Shown in pieces: positions 8,523 through 49,300 of a stretch of 51,416 nt of DNA. The number at the start of each line of letters is the position of its first letter. Position 1 is the stretch's first letter. The notes beneath the pieces were generated by a model. That model saw nothing but the letters and a program-made list of their open reading frames with translations. It did not search any database and was not told where the DNA came from. The stretch is from Patescibacteria group bacterium (GTDB lineage Bacteria; Patescibacteriota; Patescibacteriia; PEXW01). Position numbers and translations under genes: made by a program. The stretch spans positions 1 to 51,416 of the forward strand of contig JBBTRU010000001.1 of the NCBI GenBank assembly GCA_038065015.1, in the 5' to 3' direction.

Positions 8523-9899
8523 TTAGTAACGGAATTGGCGCATGAGCGCCCCGATCGCTTCGAATTCTTCGGGGGTGAGCGTGGGCGTGTGCTGCACTTT
8601 CAGCAAGTCTATAATTTCGGCTACTTCTTCTTTGCGTTCCATGGCCATTTGCCCCAGCTGCAGGTAGGCCTTAAACGTGGGTGACTGGCGGAATGCCGCA
8701 ATGCCGGCGGCCCGCTGGGCAAACGAATCGCGCGTGAGGGCGTCCATTTCTTCGGCAATCTTGCCGATGCGCGCACCCGCGCTGTCGCCCAGGCGGCGAA
8801 AATCATCCAAAGAAAGGTTGCCAAGGACTTCCACCGGGCCCATTACACGTGATGGCGCGCGCACATCGGTAACCATTTCGCGGTAGCTGGGTTCGGGCCG
8901 GGCGGTCATGGCCGCCGGGCGCGGCGCAGCCGGGCGAGCAACAGGCGTGCTTGCCGGCCGAACCATTGCGGCAGGCGCTTGCATTGGCCGCAACCACGGC
9001 GGTGGCGCCACTGAAGGTTTGGGGGCAACCGGGGCGGTGGCGGCCTTTACTGCTATTACTGGCTTTTGTACGGATTCCCTCCCACCTGTGGGGGGAGCCG
9101 AAGGCGGGTGCGACCCATCGGAAGCACCCTGGTCGGGGAGAGGGGCCGGCATCGCTGGCGGTGGCGTTGACTTGACCACAACCTTTGGCCCGCCCGCCAT
9201 CGGCTGTGCCTTAGGCGTTGCCGGGCGTGGCCTTCGATGGAGCTCTTCCACAATTTTTTCAAGTTCATTCACTATCCGGCTGGCGCGCGCCTCGTCAAAA
9301 CCCATGCCGCCAATTTTCAACGAGCGCTGTAGCATGTCCGTAGTCTCGCGCTTATCCCGCACATCCACCAGCCGCGCCTCGACAATTTTCTGCAAGCGCT
9401 TTCGCTGCATGTCGTCCAAGGTCAGCTTCTCTAGCTGGATAAACTTGGCCGTGACCTGCTCGGGGTTGGTGTCTACTAATGGCGGCGGCGCACTCTGCAG
9501 GGCGGCAGCGTGTTGGGCAATGTCCTGGTGGTCATCCGGATGCACCAGGTATTGCGAGGCGCCCGCCTGCGGTTGCAAAGGCATTTTTGGCACCTCGGCA
9601 GTGAGTACGTCTTTAACATCCGGCACGTCGAGCAAGTGGAACTTAAAAAACAAATCGTCCAGCATGTGCTTGGCCAGCTCTTTGCCTTTGCCGGCCGGCA
9701 CTTTGTACTGCAACTCCAGCACTTCATCCAGTTTTGCCGGGTCTACCTCTTGCACCATTACGCGCATAACCAGCTCGGCCAAGTTGACGCTGTAATCTTT
9801 CTCCAAGGTATCCAGCATACGCATAGCCGCAGGATCGGAGGCGCTAGCCTTCGCGGCATCGGGGAGCTTTTGAAATTTGAGGAGGAGGCTATCGGGCAT
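8523..9899 (-). CDS. Soluble Pro/Ala-rich protein, function unknown; contains a repeat-derived segment
   Basis: 458 aa with no TM or signal peptide. Central P/A-rich region (PATPKAQPMAGGPKVVVKSTPPPAMPAPLP..APPPWLRPMQAPAAMVRPASTPVARPAAPRPAA). Nucleotides ~9077..9135 are a copy of an intergenic repeat. Confidence 0.6.
   Translation of the reverse strand: MPDSLLLKFQKLPDAAKASASDPAAMRMLDTLEKDYSVNLAELVMRVMVQEVDPAKLDEVLELQYKVPAGKGKELAKHMLDDLFFKFHLLDVPDVKDVLTAEVPKMPLQPQAGASQYLVHPDDHQDIAQHAAALQSAPPPLVDTNPEQVTAKFIQLEKLTLDDMQRKRLQKIVEARLVDVRDKRETTDMLQRSLKIGGMGFDEARASRIVNELEKIVEELHRRPRPATPKAQPMAGGPKVVVKSTPPPAMPAPLPDQGASDGSHPPSAPPTGGRESVQKPVIAVKAATAPVAPKPSVAPPPWLRPMQAPAAMVRPASTPVARPAAPRPAAMTARPEPSYREMVTDVRAPSRVMGPVEVLGNLSLDDFRRLGDSAGARIGKIAEEMDALTRDSFAQRAAGIAAFRQSPTFKAYLQLGQMAMERKEEVAEIIDLLKVQHTPTLTPEEFEAIGALMRQFRY
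9077..9135. repeat. GC-rich repeat (family 3), in-frame copy inside ORF 8523..9899
   Basis: tccctcccacctgtggggggagccgaaggcgggtgcgacccatcggaagcaccctgg matches the reverse complement of 46021..46075 (ctctcccaccttggggggagccgtaggcgggtgcgacccatcgggagcgcccagg). There are only a few mismatches and one 1-nt indel. Confidence 0.6.
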
Positions 9900-23738: not shown

Positions 23739-23780
23739 ACCCAGCACCACTTTCGCCAGCTGGCGAAAGTGGTGCTGGGT
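23739..23780. repeat. Perfect 42-nt palindrome (21-bp arms)
   Basis: acccagcaccactttcgccag|ctggcgaaagtggtgctgggt, centred on CAGCTG and flanked by tcaaccc on both sides. It lies in the rsmA / T4SS-operon intergenic region. Confidence 0.9.
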
Positions 23781-23790
23781 CAACCCTCAT

Positions 23791-23931
23791 TGTCATTGCG
23801 AGTCCCGCAGCAGCGGGACGAAGCAATCTCCCTGTTAACTCTAGCCTAGGCATAACCAAAACAAGATTGCCCCGCCTCCCGAAGTCTCGTACGGCGGGCA
23901 GGCGCGCTCCCGTAGCTCGCTCGCAATGACA
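23791..23931. mobile_element. MITE-like palindromic element, family 1 (12-nt terminal inverted repeats TGTCATTGCGAG)
   Basis: tgtcattgcgag at 23791-23802 and ctcgcaatgaca at 23920-23931. Internal hairpins are cccgcagcagcggg and ccccgcct..ggcgggcagg. It is homologous, in opposite orientation, to 30164..30284 through shared blocks tgtcattgcgagt, ctgttaa, acaagattgc-cccgcct, cggcgggcagg and ctcgcaatgaca. No transposase is present. Confidence 0.55.
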
Positions 23932-24044
23932 GTTGGGGTGGTAGGTGAGGGTGTGGCGGCGAGTATAGTGAACGTGGTGTGGGTACGCGTTGTCTTCACC
24001 ACGCACCCTCACCCATACTCGACGCACGAACCCAGACCACGTAC

Positions 24045-27887: not shown

Positions 27888-28238
27888 CTATTTGCTGCGA
27901 GTGAGTTGTGCAAGTATCGTTTCAACAATACCCTCAATGTTGGTTTCAACCTCGTTACTCCACACACGTATCACCTTCCAATCTTGTGCCTGAAACCAGG
28001 CATCTCGTTCTGCATCGTATTTCTGTTGGCTTGGCATTGCGTGTCCTCCGCCATCTACTTCAATAATCAGGCGTTTACCGGGCGCAGCAAAGTCGGCAAT
28101 GTATGGCCCCACTGGATATTGCCGAAAGAATTTTACGCCATTCAAGCGTTTTGCCCTAAGGTGTTGCCATAACTTGGTTTCAGAGGGTGTTTGACGTCTT
28201 CGTAAGGAACGAGCGCGTTGAGTAAAAATTGCGGCCAT
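27888..28238 (-). CDS. DUF559 (Vsr-like endonuclease fold) protein
   Basis: RARSLRRRQTPSETKLWQHLRAKRLNGVKFFRQYPVGPYIADFAAPGKRLIIEVDGGGH...ERDAWFQAQDWKVIRVWSNEV is the DUF559 pattern. The start is set at ATG 28238 (MAAIFTQ). The 43 upstream codons in the track ORF are translated hairpin repeats. Confidence 0.75.
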   Translation of the reverse strand: MAAIFTQRARSLRRRQTPSETKLWQHLRAKRLNGVKFFRQYPVGPYIADFAAPGKRLIIEVDGGGHAMPSQQKYDAERDAWFQAQDWKVIRVWSNEVETNIEGIVETILAQLTRSK

Positions 28239-28371
28239 ATAAACTCTTTTCTCCTCTCCCTCGTTCCCTCCCCTACACGAGGGGAGGGAGGTGATAGTAA
28301 TGTCTTTACCGAATAGAGCTTCCTCCCTCTCCCCCTTGTGGGAGAGGGTTGGGGAGAGGGGTGGCAATGAT
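28239..28371. repeat. Cluster of CCCTCYCC/GGRGAGGG hairpins (family 2), directly 3' of the leuS stop
   Basis: ccctcccct-acacg-aggggaggg (28266-28288, 9-bp stem) and ccctctcc-cccttgtg-ggagaggg (28325-28348, 8-bp stem), plus ggggagagggg. Same motif family as 45955..46330 and 29634..29690. Confidence 0.7.
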
Positions 28372-30993
28372 TTACACCACGATACTCACCAACTTCCCTT
28401 TCACCACGATAATCTTCTTTGGGGTTTTGCCGTCCAGCCAGTGCTGAATTTTTTCAGACGCCAGAGCTTTGGCTTGCAGATCTTCCGCGCGGGTACCCGA
28501 AGCGACGGTGAACTTGTCGCGTACTTTTCCGTTAATTTGGACCACTACTTCCACATTTTCTGCCACGACTTTCGACGCATCGAAGCTTGGCCACTCCTGG
28601 TCGTGTACCTGATCTTTGTGGCCAAGCTGCACCCACAGCTCTTGCGCCAAGTGCGGGGCGAAAGGCGAGAGCAAGGTGATAAAAATTACAAACTCTTTCT
28701 TCGAAACAGACTCCCAAGTTGTAGCTGCGTTTACCCACTTCATAAAGTTGCTCACCGCTGTGTTCAAAGAGAACGATGCAATATCCTCGCCAATGTGTTT
28801 GACGAGTGCATGCGTCTCGCGATGCAAAGTATCACCAGGTGTTACCTTGTCTTGTAATTGCCATACCTTCTCGAGGAAACGCCGCACGCCCACAATCCCG
28901 CGCGTGCTCCAGGGCTTGGCGTCTTCCAGCGGCCCCATGAACATTTCGAACATGCGCAAGCTATCCGCACCGTACTCCCGCACAATGAGGTCGGGGGTAA
29001 TAACATTGCCGCGACTCTTGCTCATCTTCTGGCCGTCTTCGGCGAGTATCAACCCTTGGTTAATGAGCTTGGTAAACGGTTCATCGGGCAGGCTCTTTGG
29101 CACTACTTCAATATCGTGCAAGAACTTGTAGATGAAACGGGCATACAGCAAGTGCAACACGGCGTGCTCGGCCCCGCCAATATAGGTGTCTACCGGTAAC
29201 CAAGCTTTGAGTTTTTCCGGGTCGGCGAGTTGCTTAGCATTGTGCGGGTCGCAGTAGCGTAAGAAGTACCAGTTAGAACCCGCCCACTGCGGCATAGTGT
29301 TGGTCTCCCGTTTAGCTGGCCCGCCACATTTTGGACAGGTGGTGTTCACCCAACTCTTGATGCCGGCGAGCGGCGATTCTCCCGTGCCAGTGGGTTCGTA
29401 CTTTTCTACATCGGGCAGAACGACTGGCAGTTGTTCCTCGGGAACACCAACGATTCCGTCTTTTGGGCAATGCACCATCGGAATCGGCTCGCCCCAGTAG
29501 CGTTGGCGGCTGAACACCCAGTCGCGGAGCTTGTAGTTGGTGGCGGCTTTACCGTTGCCGGTTTTTTCTAACCAACCGACAATGGCTTTGCGGAATTCTT
29601 GCGAGGTGAGGCCTTCATACGGTCCGTCGTACGTCCCCTCCCTCTCTCCCTCCCCCCCTTGCAAAGGGGGGGCAGCAGGGGGGGTAACCATAATGCCCTC
29701 GCCTGTCCAGCACTCACTCTCTATATCACTGCCAAGGTGCCCCCATGCACCGGGGCTTGCAACCGGTTCAAGTGCATTTCTGGGCATTACTTTTGGCGGT
29801 TCAATAACTTTCTTTACAGGTAGCTTAAATTTCTTCGCAAACGCGTGGTCACGCTCGTCGTGCGCAGGCACGGCCATAATGGCCCCCGTGCCGTAGCTGA
29901 CCAGTACATAGTCCGCAATCCACACCGGGATTTTTTCATTGTTCACCGGGTTGATAGCGTAGGCACCGGTGAACACGCCGGTTTTTTCTTTGGCAAGCTC
30001 GGTGCGTTCCAAATCAGACTTCTGGCTCGCGTGCTTCTGGTACTTTTCTACGGCTTTCCGCTGCTCGTCAGTGGTGATTTGTGAAACAAGCGCGTGCTCG
30101 GGCGAGAGTACCATGTACGTCGCGCCGAAGAGCGTGTCGGGGCGGGTGGTGAAGACTTTAATATTGTCATTGCGAGGAGACCCGCTATTGCGGGACGACG
30201 ACCTGCCCGCCGCACTCGCCTGGGCGAGGCAGGCGGGAGCAATCTTGTCTTTGCTATTAACAGCAGGATTACTCGCAATGACAAACTGAACCTCCGCCCC
30301 CTCACTCTTCCCAATCCAGTTGCGTTGTGATTGCTTGATGCTCTCTGGCCAGTCCAGCTGGTCGAGATCATTCAGCAAGCGCTCGATGTACTTGGCGTCG
30401 GTAATCTTCACCAGCCACTGACGAATATTCTTTTTCTCGACGACGGTGCCGCAGCGGTCGCATTTGCCGCCGACGACTTCTTCATTGGCCAAACCGGTCT
30501 TGTCTTTGGGGCACCAGTTGATTGGCGCTTCGGCTTCGTACGCCAAACCGTGCTCAAAGAGCTTAAGGAAAATCCACTGCGTCCACTTGTAGTATTCCGG
30601 ATCGGTGGTGTTCACCTCCCGCGACCAGTCGTAACTAAAACCCAGGGACTGAATCTGACGTTTGAAATTGGCAATGTTCTTTTTGAGGGTGACGGTGGGG
30701 TGCGTACCGGTTTTGATGGCGTAGTTCTCGGCGGGCAAGCCAAAGGCATCCCAACCCATGGGGTGGAGCACTTGTTTGCCCTGCATCCGCAGGTACCGGC
30801 TGAAAATGTCGGACGCGGTGTAGCCCTCGGGATGGCCAACGTGCAGCCCGTCGCCCGAAGGGTACGGGAACATATCCAAAATGTATGCCTTAGCTTTGCC
30901 AGGCACAGCCGAAACAGTAAAAGCGCCCGAGCCGTACCAGATATCCTGCCACTTTTGCTCTACTTTTTTGTGGTCATAGTGCTCCTGGGCCAT
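28372..30993 (-). CDS. leuS: Leucine--tRNA ligase, carrying two repeat-derived in-frame insertions
   Basis: Class I signatures: PYPSGDGLHVGHPEGY (HIGH region), KMSKSRGN (KMSKS), TTRPDTLFGATYMVLSPEH (CP1/editing), YKLRDWVFSRQRYWGEPIPMVHC. The start is set at ATG 30993 (MAQEHYDHKKVEQKWQ). Confidence 0.95.
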   Translation of the reverse strand: MAQEHYDHKKVEQKWQDIWYGSGAFTVSAVPGKAKAYILDMFPYPSGDGLHVGHPEGYTASDIFSRYLRMQGKQVLHPMGWDAFGLPAENYAIKTGTHPTVTLKKNIANFKRQIQSLGFSYDWSREVNTTDPEYYKWTQWIFLKLFEHGLAYEAEAPINWCPKDKTGLANEEVVGGKCDRCGTVVEKKNIRQWLVKITDAKYIERLLNDLDQLDWPESIKQSQRNWIGKSEGAEVQFVIASNPAVNSKDKIAPACLAQASAAGRSSSRNSGSPRNDNIKVFTTRPDTLFGATYMVLSPEHALVSQITTDEQRKAVEKYQKHASQKSDLERTELAKEKTGVFTGAYAINPVNNEKIPVWIADYVLVSYGTGAIMAVPAHDERDHAFAKKFKLPVKKVIEPPKVMPRNALEPVASPGAWGHLGSDIESECWTGEGIMVTPPAAPPLQGGEGEREGTYDGPYEGLTSQEFRKAIVGWLEKTGNGKAATNYKLRDWVFSRQRYWGEPIPMVHCPKDGIVGVPEEQLPVVLPDVEKYEPTGTGESPLAGIKSWVNTTCPKCGGPAKRETNTMPQWAGSNWYFLRYCDPHNAKQLADPEKLKAWLPVDTYIGGAEHAVLHLLYARFIYKFLHDIEVVPKSLPDEPFTKLINQGLILAEDGQKMSKSRGNVITPDLIVREYGADSLRMFEMFMGPLEDAKPWSTRGIVGVRRFLEKVWQLQDKVTPGDTLHRETHALVKHIGEDIASFSLNTAVSNFMKWVNAATTWESVSKKEFVIFITLLSPFAPHLAQELWVQLGHKDQVHDQEWPSFDASKVVAENVEVVVQINGKVRDKFTVASGTRAEDLQAKALASEKIQHWLDGKTPKKIIVVKGKLVSIVV
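29634..29690. repeat. Family-2 GC-rich hairpin repeat inside the leuS reading frame
   Basis: tcccctccctctctccctcccccccttgcaaagggggggcagcagggggggtaacc. It is translated as VTPPAAPPLQGGEGEREGT between the conserved GEG and GLTSQEF..YKLRDW segments. Confidence 0.55.
30164..30284. mobile_element. Family-1 MITE-like element inserted in frame in leuS
   Basis: ttgtcattgcgag (30164-30176) and ctcgcaatgacaa (30272-30284) are 13-nt inverted termini. The interior is homologous to 23791..23931. It is translated as VIASNPAVNSKDKIAPACLAQASAAGRSSSRNSGSPRNDN, immediately before the conserved KVFTTRPDT. Confidence 0.6.
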
Positions 30994-31071
30994 GGGCTGC
31001 AGAATACCACGATTTTGCCACTGGAGCAAGCTACTTTTTGGCTAAGGTTAGCCTAAAAAACTCCAAAACCG

Positions 31072-34185: not shown

Positions 34186-35601
34186 TTAGTACTTCTGTAA
34201 CATTTGATCGATCGATTCCTGACTGGTGGCTTGCTGCTTGCGATGCCCCACGAGTGGCAGACTAATAAAGAAGGTGGTGCCGTTGCCTTCGTGGCTTTCA
34301 AACCAGATGCGGCCATGGTGCTTCTGCACAATACTGTACGAAATAAAGAGCCCCAAGCCCGTGCCCTCGGTCTGCATGCGGATGACGTTATCGCCGCGAA
34401 AAAACTTGGAAAAGACGTGCGTCTGCTGGTGCACGGGTATACCCACGCCCGTATCCTGAATGCTCAAAATCATTTCATCGTGTTCGGCCCTTACACGGAG
34501 CGAAATGGTGCCGCTGACCGGGGTGTACTTTAAAGCGTTATCGAGAAGATTCTGTATGGCCAGGTGCATTTTCTGCGCATCGATACGCACAATCGGTAGG
34601 GGTTGCTTGCCGGCGTCGTACAGAATTTTTATGCGCTTCTCTTCGGCCGTATGCTGCACTTCGTCAATGAGCTCATGGAGAATCGGGTCGAGCGGCTCCT
34701 CAACAAAAGTATACGAAAAACGATTCTCCTCTATACGCGAGACGTCAAGGAGATCGTTGATGAGCGTAATCATGCGCTCGTTGCTCTGGTAGCCCTTCGA
34801 AACCATGTCGGCCTGCTGCTTGTTGAGCGGGCCGGCATCTTCATCCATGAGCATTTTTAAAGACCACTTCACGGCCGACAGCGGCGTGCGTAGCTGGTGG
34901 CTGGCAACCGAAATGAATTCCGTTTTTAACTGGTCGAGTTCTTTCAGGTGCTGGTTTGCCGTCTGAAAAGCTTTGTTCGCGTTTACTAAATCCTCGTTGG
35001 TTTTGGCGAGCTGGGCTTCGACCGCCTGCAAACTGCGCACGACGTAGCCCGAGCGGTAGGTAGAAACGAGCATGAGCGTGACCAGGGTAACCCCGGTGGC
35101 GGCAATGAACGCAAAATTCTTGTGCAAATCTGGCGCAACATCAAAAGGCGCGTAATGGTTGAATATCCCCTGCTGCTCCAGGACGAAGAGAAAGGCAAAC
35201 ATGCCCGTGCCAATGAAGAAGTTTATTGGCCCGGCCCACTTCGAGAACTGCACGTTTGTGCCGACAATTTGCAGCAGGTACAGGGGCAGGAACACGCTAG
35301 TAATGCCGCCCGTGAAATGGACAATGGTGGTAATAACCGCCATGTCGATAACAATGCCCAGGTAGGGGAAGATATTGCTAATCTTCGGGCGGCTGTACAA
35401 AAAGCTGAACGCCAGGTTGAACCCCAGGGCCATAGCCACCGAGAAGAGTATGCCCGGCAAGAAAAAGTCTGCGCCAAATTGCGTCCCGGCCCACGAGAGG
35501 AGGACGACGATGAAGATGACCAGGTAGCGAATGATGACCGACCACTGCAAGCGCTTTCGGCGTTCCTGCTCTTCGAGCGCCAGCAAATCTTCAGGACGCA
35601 T
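34186..35601 (-). CDS. Membrane sensor histidine kinase
   Basis: N-terminal ~5-6 TM. H-box FISVASHQLRTPLSAVKW. N-box LLDNALKYTP. G1 IQDTGVGIP. G2 GTGLGLFISYSIV. Confidence 0.85.
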   Translation of the reverse strand: MRPEDLLALEEQERRKRLQWSVIIRYLVIFIVVLLSWAGTQFGADFFLPGILFSVAMALGFNLAFSFLYSRPKISNIFPYLGIVIDMAVITTIVHFTGGITSVFLPLYLLQIVGTNVQFSKWAGPINFFIGTGMFAFLFVLEQQGIFNHYAPFDVAPDLHKNFAFIAATGVTLVTLMLVSTYRSGYVVRSLQAVEAQLAKTNEDLVNANKAFQTANQHLKELDQLKTEFISVASHQLRTPLSAVKWSLKMLMDEDAGPLNKQQADMVSKGYQSNERMITLINDLLDVSRIEENRFSYTFVEEPLDPILHELIDEVQHTAEEKRIKILYDAGKQPLPIVRIDAQKMHLAIQNLLDNALKYTPVSGTISLRVRAEHDEMILSIQDTGVGIPVHQQTHVFSKFFRGDNVIRMQTEGTGLGLFISYSIVQKHHGRIWFESHEGNGTTFFISLPLVGHRKQQATSQESIDQMLQKY

Positions 35602-35629
35602 AGTGTTACTTTCTATTTTTGATATCTAT

Positions 35630-35658
35630 ATTCTAGCACATTTTTTCGGTTCTGTCAA
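35630..35658 (-). promoter_or_regulatory. Candidate sigma70-type promoter of the HK / membrane protein / REC-REC operon
   Basis: Minus strand: TTGACA-gaaccgaaaaaatgtgc-TAGAAT. The -35 is perfect, the spacer is 17 nt, and TGc gives an extended -10. It lies 28 nt upstream of the ATG at 35601. Confidence 0.5.
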
Positions 35659-35660
35659 AA

Positions 35661-37172
35661 CTACCCTTGACTCCGGTACTGCAACGCTTCGGCAACGTGC
35701 GCGAGCAGAATGCCTTCGCTCCCGGCCAAATCCGCAATGGTACGGCTCACTTTAAGCACGCGCACGTACCCGCGGGCCGAGAGGTGCAGCTGGTCGACGG
35801 CTTGGCGCAGCAGCGCCTGGCTGGCGGCATCTACCTGGCAGTATTTGGTGAGCAGTGCCTGCGACATGTGCGCATTGGTACGATTGTGGTGCTGTGCAAA
35901 ACGCTGCTCTTGCGTCGCCCGCGCTTGCACCACCCGGTCGCGTATGCTCGCAGAATTTTCTGCCAGCTTTCCATCCAGCCGCAGGGTGGCAAAATCCTGA
36001 CGCGGCACTTGGATGTGGAGGTCAATACGATCCAGTAATGGCCCGGACACCCGACGCTGGTAGCGGAGCAACTGGGCCGGGCTGCAGGCGCAGGCGCGCT
36101 TGGGATCGTTACGGTATCCGCACGGGCACGGGTTCTGGCTGGCCACCAGCATGCACTGTGCCGGAAAGCGCAAACTCTGCGCCGCCCGGGCCACGGTAAC
36201 CATGCCGTCCTCCAGGGGTTGGCGCAGCGCTTCCAGGGCTTGGCGCGGGAATTCTGGCAGTTCATCCAGGTAGAGCACGCCGTAGTGGGCCAGCGACACT
36301 TCGCCGGGTTTGGGTATAGAGCCCCCGCCGACGAGCGCCGCCGTAGACGTGGTGTGGTGCGGCGTGCGAAACGGCCGCCGCAACTGCAGCGGGGTTTCCG
36401 AATGGAGTGTGCCGCCAACGCTATGAATTGCCGTTACCTCCAAAGCTTCTGCATACGAGAGCGGCGGCAGGATGGAAGGCATGCTGCGGGCCAGTAGCGT
36501 TTTACCCGAACCCGGCGGGCCAACCAGCAGGACGTTGTGCCCGCCGGCCGCGGCAATTTCCATTGCGCGCTTGGCCTGCTGCTGGCCGCGCACCAGTGCA
36601 AAGTCGCTATCATCCTGCTGGGCGATGGCCGGTTGTGCAGCCGTGACAGCCTCGAGCGCGTGCGTTGCGGTAAGGTGTTGCACCAGCTGCTGCAGGGTCT
36701 GCGGGGCAAAGACCGTAAGCCCTTCCACCAGCGCGGCTTCGGGGCCATTCGCGGCCGGGACAATGGCAGTGCGGGAAGGCTGCTCTACAGCCGCCCGCGC
36801 CATTGGCAAGGCGCCGCGGACTGGACGGAGGGAGCCATCCAAACCTAGCTCGCCAATAAAGGTGAGTCCGGCACAGGGTTCGGCCGGCAGCTGGTGGGTT
36901 TGCACGAGCAGGGCAAGCGCAATGGGCAAATCGAAACCCGGCCCGGCTTTTTTTAAATCTGCGGGCGCAAGGTTTACGGTAACGTGGCCGCGCGGAAACG
37001 AGAAACCCGCGGCGCGAATGGCCGAACGCACGCGCTCGCGCGATTCTTGCACGGCCGTATCGGGCAAACCCACCACGAGAAATTTCGGCAAACCAAACTG
37101 GCTGTCAGCTTCTACAGAAACGGCACAGCCCTCCACGCCCAGCGTGGTGGCGGACAAAATTGTTGCAGACAT
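35661..37172 (-). CDS. comM: Mg-chelatase-like AAA+ protein YifB/ComM
   Basis: N-terminal Lon-protease-like domain (LGVEGCAVSVEADSQFGLPKFLVVGLPDTAVQESRERVRSAI..DLPIALALL). Walker A LLVGPPGSGKTLLA. Walker B VLYLDELPEF. The start is set at ATG 37172 (MSATILS); the upstream 57 codons of the track ORF look non-coding. Confidence 0.9.
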   Translation of the reverse strand: MSATILSATTLGVEGCAVSVEADSQFGLPKFLVVGLPDTAVQESRERVRSAIRAAGFSFPRGHVTVNLAPADLKKAGPGFDLPIALALLVQTHQLPAEPCAGLTFIGELGLDGSLRPVRGALPMARAAVEQPSRTAIVPAANGPEAALVEGLTVFAPQTLQQLVQHLTATHALEAVTAAQPAIAQQDDSDFALVRGQQQAKRAMEIAAAGGHNVLLVGPPGSGKTLLARSMPSILPPLSYAEALEVTAIHSVGGTLHSETPLQLRRPFRTPHHTTSTAALVGGGSIPKPGEVSLAHYGVLYLDELPEFPRQALEALRQPLEDGMVTVARAAQSLRFPAQCMLVASQNPCPCGYRNDPKRACACSPAQLLRYQRRVSGPLLDRIDLHIQVPRQDFATLRLDGKLAENSASIRDRVVQARATQEQRFAQHHNRTNAHMSQALLTKYCQVDAASQALLRQAVDQLHLSARGYVRVLKVSRTIADLAGSEGILLAHVAEALQYRSQG

Positions 37173-37197: not shown

Positions 37198-37240
37198 CTC
37201 CCCGCCTGCCTTCGCCTAGTGCTAGGCAGTGGCGGGCAGG
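37198..37240. repeat. Partial family-1 hairpin module (CCCGCCTGCC..GGCGGGCAGG)
   Basis: ctccccgcctgccttcgcctagtgctaggcagtggcgggcagg parallels ctcccgcctgcctcgcccaggcgagtgcggcgggcagg of the leuS element (reverse strand). It lies in the lspA-comM intergenic region. Confidence 0.45.
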
Positions 37241-44728: not shown

Positions 44729-45880
44729 TTAAAAAGTACCGGTGGCGATGTAGGTAATTGTTGTAGTGTATGCACCAGCACCAGTCGACCCAACAATGTT
44801 TGCCAATGCGCTCACGGTTAATGTTTCCGTATTCGTAGCAACGGCTTCAGAAATGAGCGTGGTTGTCGTGCTGGCCACGTAATTGAAACTCGCGGTGGCA
44901 TCTCTTTCGTATCCACTTGTGGGAGTTGAATCACCGTCTGTGCTAACACTAATACCAAAGGTGGCGGTAGTACCGGGTGCGCCATCACTATCATTGGTTG
45001 TGCTGTTATTCGGAATCGTGCTTGGACCGCCTAGTGATGCACCATTGTAAGTCACGGCCCAACCAGACGCAGCGTTTGTCGCAACCGTCATTGTGTGGGC
45101 TGCATCAGGAATGGTCGTACCATTTGGGGCAGCAGATCCGGTTGTTCCAGTCGCCCAACGGGCATTTGCTGTGGTTAGTGTACCGAATCCAATTGTATTA
45201 TCATCAACGGTAAAAGTAATCGAGGGGTCAACTGTGGCCGTCACTGCAACCTGTTCATCAGTGATAATTGAGATTGAACCTGACCCGCTATCATCGGTTG
45301 CACCCAGTTCAGTGGTAATGTCCACATCATAGTTGCCGGCAGTACCGTTTGTTATTGTGCTGGTTGACCCACCCCCACCCGAGGTCGCACCATCACCGGC
45401 AATAAGTTTTACGCAACGGCCAGCGGTAACTTCGCCACTTGTTGCATCGGTCGGGGCCGTAAGGGTAATAGCCTGGCCCGTTACATCAACACCCCAGGTC
45501 GCAGCAGCTGCGGTCAGTGACAGGGTTTTATCCACGTAGGTTAATCCACCATTGAGACACGTACCGTTTGCAGTCGAAACCTCAAAGTCAAAGTTGACGG
45601 CAGCTTCGGCAGCCAAAACTACACCAGAATCAAAGGTGTAGGTAATCGTATCGGTAGATGCATCTACGCCAGTTGGAATCGTATGGTAAATGTTGACGCT
45701 CGTGGCAGCGATACTGGCCTTAACACGCTTTTGCTCCCATGAAATCTGCCCTAGGGTAGCGGCCTGTGCTGGATTAATAGGCGTAAGAAAAGCCAGCAAG
45801 GCAAATATTGCAACAACGGCTACGGCTTTGCGAGCCGGTCCATGCTTGGTCAGCAATGCGATGATGGTTTTCATAGCCAT
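44729..45880 (-). CDS. Secreted surface protein with WxL-like C-terminal domain
   Basis: 383 aa. Signal peptide (VAIFALLAFLTPINPAQA). The C-terminal ~170 aa (SITFTVDDNTIGFGTL..AASGWAVTYNGASL..GAYTTTITYIATGTF) is colinear with the C-terminus of ORF 46335..51416. GC and codon usage are lower than in neighbours. Confidence 0.45.
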   Translation of the reverse strand: MAMKTIIALLTKHGPARKAVAVVAIFALLAFLTPINPAQAATLGQISWEQKRVKASIAATSVNIYHTIPTGVDASTDTITYTFDSGVVLAAEAAVNFDFEVSTANGTCLNGGLTYVDKTLSLTAAAATWGVDVTGQAITLTAPTDATSGEVTAGRCVKLIAGDGATSGGGGSTSTITNGTAGNYDVDITTELGATDDSGSGSISIITDEQVAVTATVDPSITFTVDDNTIGFGTLTTANARWATGTTGSAAPNGTTIPDAAHTMTVATNAASGWAVTYNGASLGGPSTIPNNSTTNDSDGAPGTTATFGISVSTDGDSTPTSGYERDATASFNYVASTTTTLISEAVATNTETLTVSALANIVGSTGAGAYTTTITYIATGTF

Positions 45881-45918
45881 TCGGGGCTAAAGTAAGGGTT
45901 TTTATTACGACTGAAAAT

Positions 45919-45947
45919 AGTATAGCACGGATTACGAAAAAAGGCAA
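45919..45947 (-). promoter_or_regulatory. Candidate sigma70-type promoter of the 383-aa surface protein gene
   Basis: Minus strand: TTGCCT-tttttcgtaatccgtgc-TATACT, with a 17-nt spacer and a TGc extended -10. It lies 38 nt upstream of the ATG at 45880. Confidence 0.4.
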
Positions 45948-45954
45948 ACCTAGG

Positions 45955-46330
45955 CTACGCCCCTCTCTCGCCCTTCCTGCCCGCCATTGCTAACGCTCAG
46001 GCGTTGCAGGCGGGCGGGCACCTGGGCGCTCCCGATGGGTCGCACCCGCCTACGGCTCCCCCCAAGGTGGGAGAGTGATGAAAAGTGTTAACCCCCCCTC
46101 TCCCTCGGGAGAGGTACGGGTGAGGGGATGACGAGTGTGGCTCTGTCACACCTCCCCTTAGTCCCCTCCTTCGTAAGGAGGGGATAATTTCTAAGCATCC
46201 TCCCCTGCGAGTGGAGAGGATGTTCTAAGGTCTCCCTCTCCGCTTGGGGAGAGGGACCAAGGGAGAGGGGTTCAAAGAAAAATATCCCCTCCTCTCGGAG
46301 GAGGGGTGGCCAAAGGCCGGGGTGGTATTA
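45955..46330. repeat. Array of non-identical GC-rich hairpins (families 1-3), directly 3' of the giant gene stop
   Basis: cctgcccgcc..aacgc-tcag-gcgtt..ggcgggcggg (about 45977-46018). Family-3 unit at 46021-46075. cctctcc-ctcg-ggagagg (~46097-46114). cccctcctt-cgt-aaggagggg (46163-46183). catcctcccc-tgcgag-tggagaggatg (46196-46222). tccctctcc-gcttgg-ggagaggga (46233-46256). cccctcctc-tcg-gaggagggg (46286-46306). Confidence 0.75.
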
Positions 46331-46334
46331 TTTT

Positions 46335-49300
46335 CTAGAACGTCCCCGTGACAATGTACGTCACGGCGGTGCTGTACGCGCCAGGCAGCGTGGTTGCAGC
46401 AATGTTGCAAATGTAATACACGCTGGCCGTTTCGGTGGTGGGCGTGGCCGTGGCTTTAGAAAGCAGCGGCGTGGTTGTACTCGGTACAAACGAGTAGTTG
46501 TTGCTGGCTTGCTGGTTGGCCGACGGGATAGTGCCGCTGCCGTTTGTGGTAATCGCCAGGGCAAATTGCTTGCTGTTGGGCGTACCATCGGCATCGCCGG
46601 TGAACGTGGCCGCGGTAATCGTTTCTGGGCCGACCAGGTTAGCGCCATTGTAGCTAAGGGCGTAGCCTTCAAATGCGCTGGTGGTAATAGCTAGGGTGTG
46701 GGCGGCCACGGCGCTAGCCGAACCCGTTGCCCCGGCATTGGCCCAGGTGGCGGCCGTGGAAGAGAGCGTACCAAACCCGACTGCCACATCGTTAATAACA
46801 AAGGTGAGGGTGTGGATATTCCAGCAGTCGTTGCCGCCAATGTCGTGGCTCGTGCCGTCGCTGGCGTCAATGTCTGGAGCTTGGCCGCAGGCGTTAGAGT
46901 CTTTTACTTCTGTATACGTTACCGCCCGCGTACCCGCCACGTTCACATTCCACTGCGTGCCGCCGGTGGAACTGCGCAAAGCCACGCGCGTACCAGTGGC
47001 TTGGCCATTGAGGGTAAGATTTTGCAACGTGTACGTGCCACCGGCCAAGAAGCGCAGCTTGGTACTGGCCGTGCTGGCGTTAAAGGTGCTGGCTGTATCC
47101 AGTGCTGCAGCAAAGATGACGGACGGTGAAGTCACCGGATCCGATCCCGAAGCATTGGTAATGATGAGGTTGTTAAACCGGTCATTGGCGCCCGTGAGTT
47201 GGCCATCTACGGTCTGCTGGCTGCCGCCATCCAGCGTGACTGTGCCACTGCCGTCGGTGAAGTCGCCGTTGTTGGTCCAGTTACCCGCGACGTTGAATGC
47301 CGCCGTGGATGAAGCCTGCAGTGTCGTGCCAGCGCCAATCGTCACGGCGCCGTTGACGTCTATAATCCGATCGTTGGTTTCGTTATCAACTATCAAGGAC
47401 GTGCCGCCATTAGTGGTAGACAGCGTATTTGCCACAATGGTTTGGCCAGTACCCGTGGCATTGAACGTGATTGTGGGCGTGCCGGATGAGGCCGTGAACG
47501 TAAGGTTGTAGAACGTCCAGTTGGTACCCACGGCCACGTTGGTGCCAAAGCTCTTGCTGGCACTCACACTCTGCGTGAAAGTATTGGTGCCAGCACTGTT
47601 CATGGTAATGGTGCCGCAGGTGGTAAGGCACTGCACGTTGCCATTCACCGTGACATTGGCTGTGCCGGCAGCCGTATTAAACGTACCCGCAGTCATAATG
47701 AGGTCATTCGTTACCGTCAGGGTATTCGTCAGTGGCGACCACGCCCCGCCCGAACCGTTGAACGTAACGTTGTAAAAATTCGATGCGCCATTATTTATGG
47801 TGTGGCCCGTGTCGGTTGCCGTGAACGTGGCGGTGGAGGTGTCGTACGTAAAAGTGTTGCTGTTCAACCAGTTGCCCCCAACGCTGATGGCATTTGCGTC
47901 GGCGGTCCAAACGCCCACGTTTTCCACGTGGTTTGTGGTTACGTCAGCGCCACCGGCTGATGCCGGACGGAACGTATCGCCAGACGCAACGTAGAGCTCT
48001 TCCTGCGAAGACTGTACTTCTGTATCAACGGTGAGGTCGTTGCCCGCGCTGACTTCCCAGAAAACGTCGTCATCGCCGCTGGCAACCGAGTTGTCATATT
48101 GGCCAATGTCCGCATTGGTAAGCGTCTGGTCGTCCACGCTGCCAATGGTGAAGTGTTCTTTGAAAAGTGTCACGCCGGTTATATCGCCCGTGCCGTCATA
48201 CTTGGCCACTGCCCCGGCCCGGTCGGCCATGGTGGCCGCCGCGTCTATCCATATGGTTACAATCTGTCCAGAGGTTACCGACACGCCAGAGATATCCCAG
48301 GTGCCGGCAATGCTGGTATCTTCCTGGGCTTGGACAGACCCGTTGACCGCAACTTTCACAGTGCCAACGTCGGTGCAGTCCGTGCTTTGGTCATAGGCGT
48401 CGCACGTGCCAGAAATAGTTATACCGCAGGTGGCACCGGCGCTCACGCTCCAGTTGGTGTTGCCGCCGCCGGTTTCGGTGGAAAAAGTGGCACAGAACGC
48501 GGCACCGGTATTATTAGAATCCGATACCTGCACGTACGTGACCGCTGCCGCCGTGGGATTGATAGTCCACTGGGTTGGCGAGCTGGATGACTCGAGGGTA
48601 ATTTTCTTCCCCGAGAATCCAGTAATCGTCCACGTACCCGACACGGTCTGGGTGGTACTGGCAGTGAAGCGGAGGGTGCGGCCGGCCGCATTCGCCGACG
48701 TGGACGCGTTGAAATTATTGAAGGTTGTGCTGCCCGAAAGCAGTTGCGTCGAAGCATCGGCACCGTCGAAGGTGACGGTTCCGCTGCGGGCAGTGAACCC
48801 GCCAGAGTTTGCCCAGTTCCCGGCCACGTCAAGGTTGTAGTTTGAGCCCGACTTCGCGTCGAGGGTTGCGCTGGCGCCAATGGTCACGTTGCCGCCGACC
48901 CCATTTGAACCCGTCAGATCGCCCGAGAGGTCATAGGTTTCCGCGCCAGCCACCTCCAAATTGTTGTACGTCGTGGTGGCGACGTTCACATTCCCCCCGG
49001 AATTCGTTGCTGTGTATTTCACCGTGGAATTGCTATTGGGCGTAAGCGTACCAGTCACCGTGAATACAGTAGCCGTCGCTCCGGCCTTCGCCAGCATCAA
49101 TGTGTAGCCACTGCTCGCCAGGTCCAGGGTATCGCCAGTCTGAATGTCTGCACTATCCCCAGTCATACTGGATGCGAGTGTCACTTTATCATTAGCGCCC
49201 ACACCGCTGGTTTTGTTGAAGACGACGGTGCCAATATTCTGCGGAGTGCCGGTGCTATCGGTGTAGGTCGCGGCCGTGGTGCCATCGAAGGTCCAGGTGC

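Follow-up and report, generated by a model that had tools for sequence, protein, structure and literature searches.

How does a palindromic repeat come to be read in frame within an essential gene, and what accounts for its persistence there? The question is raised by leuS, the gene for leucyl-tRNA synthetase (LeuRS), on a 51,416-nucleotide contig of a Patescibacteria group bacterium (JBBTRU010000001.1 of assembly GCA_038065015.1; this whole stretch is called the window). The gene is an open reading frame (ORF) of 885 amino acids at 28372..31029 on the minus strand, and within it, at 30164..30284 of the same strand, lies a 121-nt composite palindromic element that we call e1. Rickettsia is the best-known case of palindromic repeats that lie in frame within housekeeping genes. 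We consider it probable that e1 is a palindromic repeat of the non-autonomous kind, consisting of two inverted units of the repetitive extragenic palindrome (REP) type, placed in frame in leuS and tolerated in a permissive loop. This reading is carried by the identity of the segment as a repeat, its in-frame reading, the variable and predicted-disordered nature of the loop, persistence in orthologues, conservation of its sequence boxes beyond coding need, and the absence of a target duplication.

A preliminary description of this DNA had proposed a segment of about 120 nt with 13-nt inverted termini, homologous in its interior, but in inverted orientation, to an intergenic element; both claims held when measured. 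The termini of e1 form a perfect inverted pair of 13 nt: box A (TTGTCATTGCGAG in the sense of leuS; 30272..30284, minus strand), which encodes (F)VIAS, and box A' (CTCGCAATGACAA in the same sense; 30164..30176, minus strand), which encodes PRNDN. With at most one mismatch, TTGTCATTGCGAG occurs at only four sites in the window, namely both ends of e1 and both ends of the intergenic element, e2; with up to two mismatches there are six sites against 1.15 expected, a number reached by 0 of 100 dinucleotide shuffles. Element e2 (23790..23932, plus strand, 3' of a ksgA-like gene) is a complete four-box copy of 143 nt with the order A, stem-loop, B, spacer, B', hairpin module, A', and its orientation is opposite to that of e1. 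The e1 copy is of the same four-box REP-dimer type, with the first stem-loop and box B deleted relative to e2. Its remaining parts, all on the minus strand, are box B' (30236..30244; GATTGCTCC in leuS sense, GGAGCAATC on the plus strand), a nested GC-rich hairpin module (30202..30237; CCCGCCTGCC...GGCGGGCAGG, encoding PACLAQASAAGR) and, between this module and box A', a small stem-loop (30181..30194; CCCGCAATAGCGGG). When one of the two interiors was reverse-complemented they aligned with a score of 30, the mean for shuffled sequences being −13.7 (z = 5.3, equalled by 0 of 500 shuffles), whereas alignment in the same orientation was at chance level (z = −0.6).

Both elements fold into long branched hairpins with stabilities far above those of shuffled sequences (DNA z = −6.2 to −7.8; −7.6 to −7.8 for either strand of e1). 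The hairpin module, with arms CCGCCTGCC and GGCGGGCAGG, is present four times in the window. Two copies are nested in e1 and e2, and two stand alone: one at 37202..37240 (plus strand) upstream of the likely comM start, the hairpin already noticed at 37198..37240, and one at 45976..46017 (minus strand) within an intergenic cluster of hairpin repeats. This cluster (45880..46335) crowds at least six different short GC hairpin repeats, the solo module among them. A perfect 42-nt palindrome (ACCCAGCACCACTTTCGCCAG / CTGGCGAAAGTGGTGCTGGGT) occupies 23739..23780, about 10 nt from e2, between the ksgA-like gene and the gene for a giant protein of 3069 amino acids. None of the genes in the window encodes a transposase, in agreement with the preliminary description, and no Rfam family matched the window or 20 copy-bearing loci at gathering score; at a permissive E-value e2 gave chance-level microRNA matches only.

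Where in the enzyme does the element sit? It is read through without a stop, as had been reported, giving VIASNPAVNSKDKIAPACLAQASAAGRSSSRNSGSPRNDN, which corresponds to residues 250-289 of the 885-aa ORF (window positions 30163..30282), begins with VIAS and ends with PRNDN; IAPACLAQASAAGR is one predicted insert peptide. The flanking residues are GAEVQF on the N-terminal side and IKVFTTRPDT on the C-terminal side. In an alignment with the LeuRS of T. thermophilus (1H3N) the sequences part between residues 237 and 242 (...GAEILFPVE237 followed by R242-IPVFTTRPDT). The insert thus takes the place of the tip or turn of the first beta-hairpin at the start of the connective peptide 1 (CP1) editing domain, at the entry to which it had been placed before, and the threonine-rich editing motif TTRPDT follows five residues after it. 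The spacing from NWIG to FTTRPDT is 52 residues in the window LeuRS, compared with 20 as the commonest value in outgroups (33 of 46). This baseline comes from one metagenome scan, in which both motifs were located in 46 of 80 loci and which matched distant LeuRS proteins only (49-55% identical). An AlphaFold2 model of the window LeuRS built from 42 sequences had a mean predicted local distance difference test score (pLDDT) of 83 and a predicted template modelling score of 0.78. Residues 256-286 were below pLDDT 50, and the strands on either side (241-251 and 289-294) were confident. The 36-40 residues encoded by the insert are therefore predicted to be a disordered surface loop, in keeping with the tolerated surface loop first suggested. 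The HVGH, KMSKS and TTRPDT motifs and all family-invariant columns are intact, and the enzyme looks functional. The annotated protein (P0001; proteins and loci are designated by P and L numbers) starts 12 codons downstream of the start of the 885-aa ORF, and an identical protein is annotated as leucine--tRNA ligase in a Patescibacteria group metagenome-assembled genome (MAG).

Orthologous genes provide strong evidence that the segment is translated. We compared the DNA of twelve orthologous leuS loci, some of them labelled Kerfeldbacteria, which share the gene order comM, hisKA, response regulator, LysM/M23, leuS, Sua5, MFS, ksgA and giant protein. Nine of the twelve orthologues (P0018, 21, 22, 23, 24, 25, 28, 38 and 53), 57-64% identical to the window LeuRS, carry a four-box element in the same loop. 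Together with the window they make ten leuS copies, all read in the frame GTC ATT GCG ... CGC AAT GAC (VIA...RND), which is one of six open frame combinations, and all at a position constant within one codon. Their lengths are 81, 81, 87, 93, 96, 111, 117, 117, 120 and 123 nt, each stop-free and a multiple of three, which would happen by chance with a probability of about (1/3)^10 if frame were irrelevant. The lengths of 130 copies from other phyla, described below, divide by their remainder modulo three as 39/58/33. This difference is strong sequence-level evidence that the insert is part of the translated protein. The junction with the host is of two types, F|VIAS and F-x|VIAS, and the encoded peptides range from 27 to 41 residues and diverge widely in sequence.

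The same data bear on the suspicion that the insert is a chimera of the assembly, or that it is an intervening sequence which the cell takes out ahead of translation or in the course of it. Palindromes can provoke misassembly, and bounds that form an inverted repeat could pair in RNA. A second, independent assembly, however, encodes a LeuRS identical at 872 of 873 positions and bearing the same insert (P0122), and therefore the insert is not a misassembly; the ten orthologous contigs, moreover, come from different samples. An intervening sequence is contradicted by the ten of ten copies that are stop-free and a multiple of three in length. The frame statistics and the absence of intein motifs led us to reject an intein, an intron or translational bypass, and we regard this whole group of explanations as having a very small probability. 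Near-identical LeuRS proteins showed no excision polymorphism: their cluster has three members, and every full-length one contains the insert.

In their interiors the ten copies are mosaics. The elements of L121 and L124 are nearly identical except for a 39-nt hairpin module, which L121 shares with e1 of the window and which L124 lacks. The left stem-loop of the L122 copy is identical to that of the intergenic e2 and its right stem-loop, the small one, matches e1. In L126 the hairpin module is on the opposite arm and in the opposite orientation, and in L128 a domain resembling inosine triphosphatase (ITPase) follows directly after the element. Element variants follow host subclades (L121 with L124; L125 with L127 and L128; the window copy with L122). 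Within 10-23 kb of each orthologous leuS there are few or no further four-box copies.

Is the element confined to this lineage? We scanned one genome per species with the pattern GTCATTGCGAG-N(90-120)-CTCGCAATGAC and obtained at least 120 matching stretches, from which a cross-phylum set of 130 copies was taken. The hosts listed include Bradyrhizobium and other Alphaproteobacteria, Legionellales, Coxiellaceae, Helicobacter, Chloroflexus, Anaerolineae, Bacteroidota, Bacillota, Spirochaetaceae, Atribacterota, Armatimonadetes, a Kuenenbacteria MAG and others; shorter variants of the element were found on 111 viral contigs. The architecture is [C/T]GTCATTGCGAG ... CGAAGCAATC ... GATTGCTTCG ... CTCGCAATGAC[G/A], with outer boxes TGTCATTGCGAG / CTCGCAATGACA and inner boxes CGAAGCAATC / GATTGCTTCG. 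It can be described as a unit, [C/T]GTC-ATTGC-GAG...CGAA-GCAAT-C, present as two inverted copies around a spacer; as a single strand each unit would form the hairpin TGTC-ATTGCGAG. The 130 listed copies follow the order outer box, variable GC stem-loop, CGAAGCAATC, spacer of 20-60 nt, GATTGCTTCG, variable stem-loop, outer box. Although the pattern searched did not call for the inner boxes, B and B' each occur, if one mismatch is allowed, in 94 of the 130 copies, compared with 1-3 in shuffles; 77 copies contained both, B preceding B' in 76 of these. GTC is preceded by C in 77 of the 130 copies and by T in 44. By its sequence, then, e1 is not lineage-specific and belongs to a cross-phylum four-box family. 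A full-text literature search with the box sequences returned unrelated primers only.

Insertion into coding sequence is a general habit of this family, of which leuS is one instance. Thirteen of the 130 listed copies lie inside open frames that extend for 80 codons or more to either side, and a Pfam scan of ten of these ORFs gave domain matches in eight, with the element inside or adjoining the domains. The matched proteins are an ABC-F ATPase (Helicobacter canis), a histidine kinase, TruB, an Eco57I-type methylase, a MiaB-like protein, TsaD, a radical SAM protein and an O-antigen ligase. In one locus of another phylum (L093, 2528..3790) a four-box copy links TruB and a cytidylyltransferase-like (RibF-type) domain in a single ORF, a possible repeat-mediated gene fusion.

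These comparisons decide against the segment being an ancestral, lineage-specific LeuRS loop that resembles the repeat by chance. The preliminary description had named close orthologues as the check on this point, and they answered it in part. More distant orthologues do carry an insert in the loop; of the four closest relatives, three have quite different occupants there and one, P0021, has the same element. Related VIA...RND peptides at the same place in proteins 57-64% identical are what an ancestral loop would produce; at the DNA level, however, the inserts of the distant orthologues are copies of the same repeat with intact boxes and not protein sequence of ancestral origin. The loop explanation also has to contend with the DNA homology of e1 to the intergenic e2, with boxes identical to those at 120 or more loci in unrelated phyla, with synonymous sites that are frozen inside the boxes only, and with the 20-residue form found in outgroups and several ingroup members. 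We consider it highly improbable.

The conservation of the element relative to its host gene was then quantified. In the ten leuS copies, third positions of codons for identical amino acids were never invariant in the flanks (0 of 15; pairwise identity 0.39), whereas in boxes A and A' five of six were invariant (pairwise identity 0.97). Across the whole gene, third-position identity at identical residues is 0.29-0.56; synonymous positions of leuS outside the element are close to saturation. Nucleotide identity in the gene core (633 gap-free codons) is 63-77%, compared with 78-96% at aligned positions of the element; for L121 against L124 the values are 76% and 96%. A translated, disordered and functionally free loop is expected to evolve faster than the core of an essential enzyme. 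The insert changes by insertion and deletion of modules and scarcely by substitution, and passive drift of an old insertion is therefore excluded. Three possibilities are left: the sequence of the element is itself under constraint, other copies homogenise it, or copies have arrived repeatedly.

Constraint might mean that the insert has been domesticated and is retained for a function. Its peptide could be what matters, forming perhaps a disordered arm close to the editing site or to the path of the tRNA acceptor. Alternatively, a hairpin in the leuS mRNA or DNA could bind a protein, or make translation pause where the catalytic core gives way to CP1. Boxes invariant at synonymous sites in ten orthologues, an element more conserved than the gene core, hairpins of −36 to −46 kcal/mol as DNA (z = −7.6 to −10), a loop occupied in many lineages and an insert exactly at a domain boundary would all fit such a role. 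The boxes are equally conserved, however, in intergenic copies of many phyla, which ties the constraint to the element rather than to leuS. Moreover, peptides that vary so widely in length and sequence, a segment predicted to be disordered, and well-supported sister lineages with unrelated occupants or the short ancestral turn are hard to reconcile with a conserved function, and we consider domestication improbable.

Sister lineages show what else can occupy the loop. In a bootstrapped neighbour-joining tree the clade of P0001 (the window), P0002, P0003, P0005 and P0021 has 96% support, with P0011 as its sister (99%). P0001 and P0021 carry the four-box element. The same loop holds an alpha/beta-hydrolase domain of roughly 190 aa in P0002, a different palindrome in P0003 (GAACTTAGAAC...GTTCTAAGTTC; locus L132) and a low-complexity insert in P0005, and P0011 has a 26-aa form near the ancestral length. 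The L132 palindrome starts directly after the Phe codon (TTT|GAACTTAGAACTGAGAAC...GTTCTTCGTTCTAAGTTC). In all, the occupants of the loop in sister lineages include two or more palindromic families with no relation to each other and two types of enzyme domain, and NUDIX domains are found at a second site nearby. The leuS loop is thus a hotspot whose occupant changes.

Several features of these other occupants were recorded. Repeat families other than the four-box element occupy the same codon in P0003 (L132, 10001..12952), P0007, P0019 and P0059 and in P0005, 8, 16 and 96. Among them are the GAACTTAGAACTGAGAAC...GTTCTTCGTTCTAAGTTC palindrome, read as ELRTEN...VLRSKFSV, and an AT-rich low-complexity repeat, read as EILNxKSETxxKxEIRNSK. 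Alpha/beta-hydrolase (PF12697/PF06821, about 190-210 aa) or Ham1/ITPase-like (PF01725) domains lie inside the CP1 hairpin loop of many LeuRS proteins of the clade, and a second domain site, after AHDERDxxFAxKxxLP, accepts NUDIX (PF00293) or alpha/beta-hydrolase domains. Proteins with such extra domains (P0002, 4, 6, 9, 10, 15, 17, 29, 34, 35, 52 and 76; P0028, 32, 39 and 50; loci L128 and L131) reach 1367 aa. No description of LeuRS with whole enzyme domains in the CP1 loop was found in the literature searched. Beyond the element itself no inverted repeats flank the alpha/beta-hydrolase domain of L131 or the ITPase-like domain of L128, and nothing therefore points to palindromes as the vehicles of these domains.

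The turnover of occupants lends some weight to repeated, site-directed insertion, by which the orthologous copies would be independent and fairly recent arrivals at a preferred target, defined by the codon sequence or structure or by one palindrome attracting another. An unrelated palindrome family at the same codon, after TTT, in L132, the two junction types, the inverted module on the opposite arm in L126, the short-loop orthologues nested among carriers, and intact boxes and high element identity are all expected if copies arrived recently and more than once. Other observations speak against it: only one of six open frame combinations is used throughout, the position is the same within one codon, element variants follow host subclades, the flanks of the 130 listed copies contain neither a common target motif nor a duplication, and donor copies near the orthologous leuS genes are few or missing. 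On balance we consider repeated insertion possible but less likely, and the tracking of subclades argues, at the sequence level, for inheritance within them.

How, then, might a non-autonomous repeat have reached leuS and been kept there? Arrival was probably by hairpin-based, and probably single-strand, transposition or recombination that left no target duplication, the enzyme being supplied in trans. In an essential gene such as leuS, survival would be limited to stop-free copies of a length divisible by three and placed in a tolerant loop. Once placed, the element would pass vertically within subclades, its interior changing by gain, loss and possibly inversion of hairpin modules. Its boxes would be kept by a constraint intrinsic to the element and not to the gene, such as gene conversion from other copies, repair that uses the opposite arm as template, or insertion over and over again. 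Other palindromes or whole domains would have taken over the loop in sister lineages, or the occupant would be absent.

Several points weigh against this account. Translation of the insert is deduced from statistics on reading frame and length. Vertical persistence with maintenance of the sequence and repeated independent insertion at a hotspot both fit the data, although the tracking of subclades favours inheritance. The short, ancestral-type loops of P0060 and P0062 nest among the carriers, at bootstrap values of 67-75% only, in a tree that was built by neighbour-joining on a fast alignment. The hairpin module is common to the window copy and the distant L121 and is missing from their nearer relatives. 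The 51 kb examined contain only two full copies and two solo modules. Finally, the enzyme acting in trans is itself an inference.

A candidate for this mobilising enzyme exists within the clade. A REP-associated tyrosine transposase (RAYT; NCBIfam NF047646, 106-121 bits against a cut-off of 80) lies between comM and hisKA in syntenic positions in three close relatives (L122, 5529..6068; L132, 4696..5274; L133, 4630..5190; NF047646 was confirmed in L122 and L132, and L133 was assigned by its PF01797 match). The gene is absent from the 60-nt gap at the syntenic position of the window (35601..35661), and there is no RAYT in the 8-kb stretches around the 130 listed cross-phylum copies; no transposase of any kind was seen beside the copies examined elsewhere. 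A direct link between RAYT and the element was sought and is not supported: in a tblastn search of about 1 Mb of loci plus the window, the relative's RAYT matched only itself, and its flanks contain no boxes.

The element was compared with known systems that share some of its properties. The label 'MITE-like' in the preliminary description, referring to miniature inverted-repeat transposable elements, is only loosely apt. Element e1 has perfect 13-nt terminal inverted repeats, as do the elements mobilised by DDE transposases, but no parent insertion sequence was found, though no library of such sequences was searched, and the target-site duplication expected of them is lacking: direct repeats of 2-8 bp at the ends of the 130 listed copies are at or below chance. 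The REPINs mobilised by RAYTs (Bertels and Rainey 2011, PMC3116915) are closer. They likewise consist of two inverted REP units and a spacer that can form one long hairpin, lack a target duplication and persist vertically for long times, and the single-copy RAYT seen in conserved synteny in the close relatives is a further similarity. The four-box units differ in having no GTAG tag, and the RAYT genes of the relatives are not flanked by boxes.

The closest resemblance is to the CGTC-tagged REPs (Di Nocera, De Gregorio and Rocco 2013, BMC Genomics 14:522, PMC3733652). In these the tag is often TGTC and may be CCTC, the stem has 8-9 bp with A-T pairs at its first two positions, the loop has 4-5 nt and a CCA tail follows. 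They are mostly inverted dimers with spacers of 20-100 bp, occur in five phyla and have no dedicated transposase, and some lie in frame within genes, including aminoacyl-tRNA synthetase genes. The four-box family agrees in the TGTC tag of e1, e2 and all ten leuS copies, in the A-T start of the stem (an ATTGC/GCAAT pair in every four-box unit), in inverted dimers with the tags outermost, in its spread over many phyla and in the confirmed in-frame copies within genes. As to the tail, CCA is seen in many proteobacterial copies: box B is followed by AAT-CCA in 41 of the listed copies that contain this box (the tallies under CAG, CAT and CAC), and copies from the candidate phyla radiation have AATCTC. 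In contrast, only 5 bp of the stem are perfect, and after them come GAG/CGAA and a stem-loop that varies between 7 and 40 nt; the encoded peptides, VIAS...EAI and EIA...RND, are absent from the four tabulated families (VIPAKAGI, VIAGLDPAI, VIPWLDHGI and others); and Patescibacteria, Chloroflexota, Bacillota and several other phyla with four-box copies are outside the five reported. We therefore place the four-box family as a related subfamily beside the CGTC REP superfamily, uncatalogued in PMC3733652 and inside no described family.

The analogy with Rickettsia palindromic elements (RPEs) drawn at the outset is a sound one, and it leads to the same superfamily, since CGTC-1 has been equated with Neisseria dRS3 and RPE-6, and CGTC-4 with RPE-4 (PMC3733652). 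RPEs are palindromes of about 100-150 bp in frame in unrelated housekeeping genes, and the segments they encode lie on the protein surface (PMC10969869, PMC3767692, summarising Ogata et al. 2000 Science 290:347 and Ogata et al. 2002). Inserts at the same locus in orthologues have been described, and whether this means 'hotspot or common origin' was asked for RPE-4, -6 and -7, which share an ATGAC motif, and left open (PMC10969869, PMC3767692). The leuS element is alike in being a palindrome in frame in a protein gene whose encoded segment is on the protein surface. It differs in phylum and in box sequence, in a loop that also hosts unrelated palindromes and whole enzyme domains, and in that synonymous-site conservation of the boxes has been quantified for the leuS copies. 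Nor is it a member of RPE-4 or RPE-6, whose listed peptides (VIPWLDHGI, VIPAKAGI, DSRFRGND) set it apart from them (VIAS...RND).

Other repeats in the window are also translated. A second repeat-derived segment of leuS (29626..29685, minus strand; TPPAAPPLQGGEGEREGTYD, residues 449-468) is in frame and belongs to a hairpin family unrelated to the four-box element, CTCCCTCyCCCCCTTG...GGGAGAGGG, with further copies at 28323..28362 and 46232..46271. It is located where CP1 ends on its C-terminal side, at a place that in most orthologues has the sequence ...INSGKYDG..., and its pLDDT is below 50; related peptides occur at the equivalent site in P0003, P0004 and P0013. Directly downstream of leuS is a DUF559 ORF (Vsr-like endonuclease fold; 27888..28367, minus strand) whose 5' extension consists of the GGGAGAGGG-type hairpin repeat. 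DUF559 genes also lie near leuS in L121, L125, L128 and L131, at positions that vary as if the genes were mobile. The third translated repeat of the window is 45 nt long (9089..9133), lies inside the ORF at 8523..9899 (minus strand) and is 91% complementary to an intergenic copy at 46020..46064. It is in frame within a Pro/Ala-rich linker of a 458-aa hypothetical protein (..PDQGASDGSHPPSAPPTGG..).

That repeats resembling RPEs or REP dimers are translated within housekeeping genes is a phenomenon of an already-known kind. It is shown here in the reduced genomes of Patescibacteria, with repeat boxes common to many phyla. What goes beyond the descriptions we found is the cross-phylum four-box subfamily and a hotspot in leuS, defined to the codon, at which the repeat is better conserved than the gene. 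In predicted proteins, peptides such as VIAS...EAI...EIA...RND can serve annotators and structure predictors as a marker of translated repeats. The locus is also a natural experiment: with one codon-level site in many lineages, constraint on a repeat becomes measurable against a saturated synonymous background, and turnover among repeats, whole domains and the ancestral turn can be traced at a single site. Two old questions could thereby become open to test: how REP-like sequences are preserved for so long, and whether proteins gain new loops or domains with the help of these elements. A bolder and rather unlikely proposition is that the first beta-hairpin of CP1 is a long-lived landing pad in an essential gene of this Patescibacteria clade, where templated repair, gene conversion or an enzyme directed to the site actively maintains the repeats or targets them anew. 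If that were true, the palindromes would be more than debris that the gene tolerates: they would be lasting residents, and would hold open a loop in which proteins can innovate.

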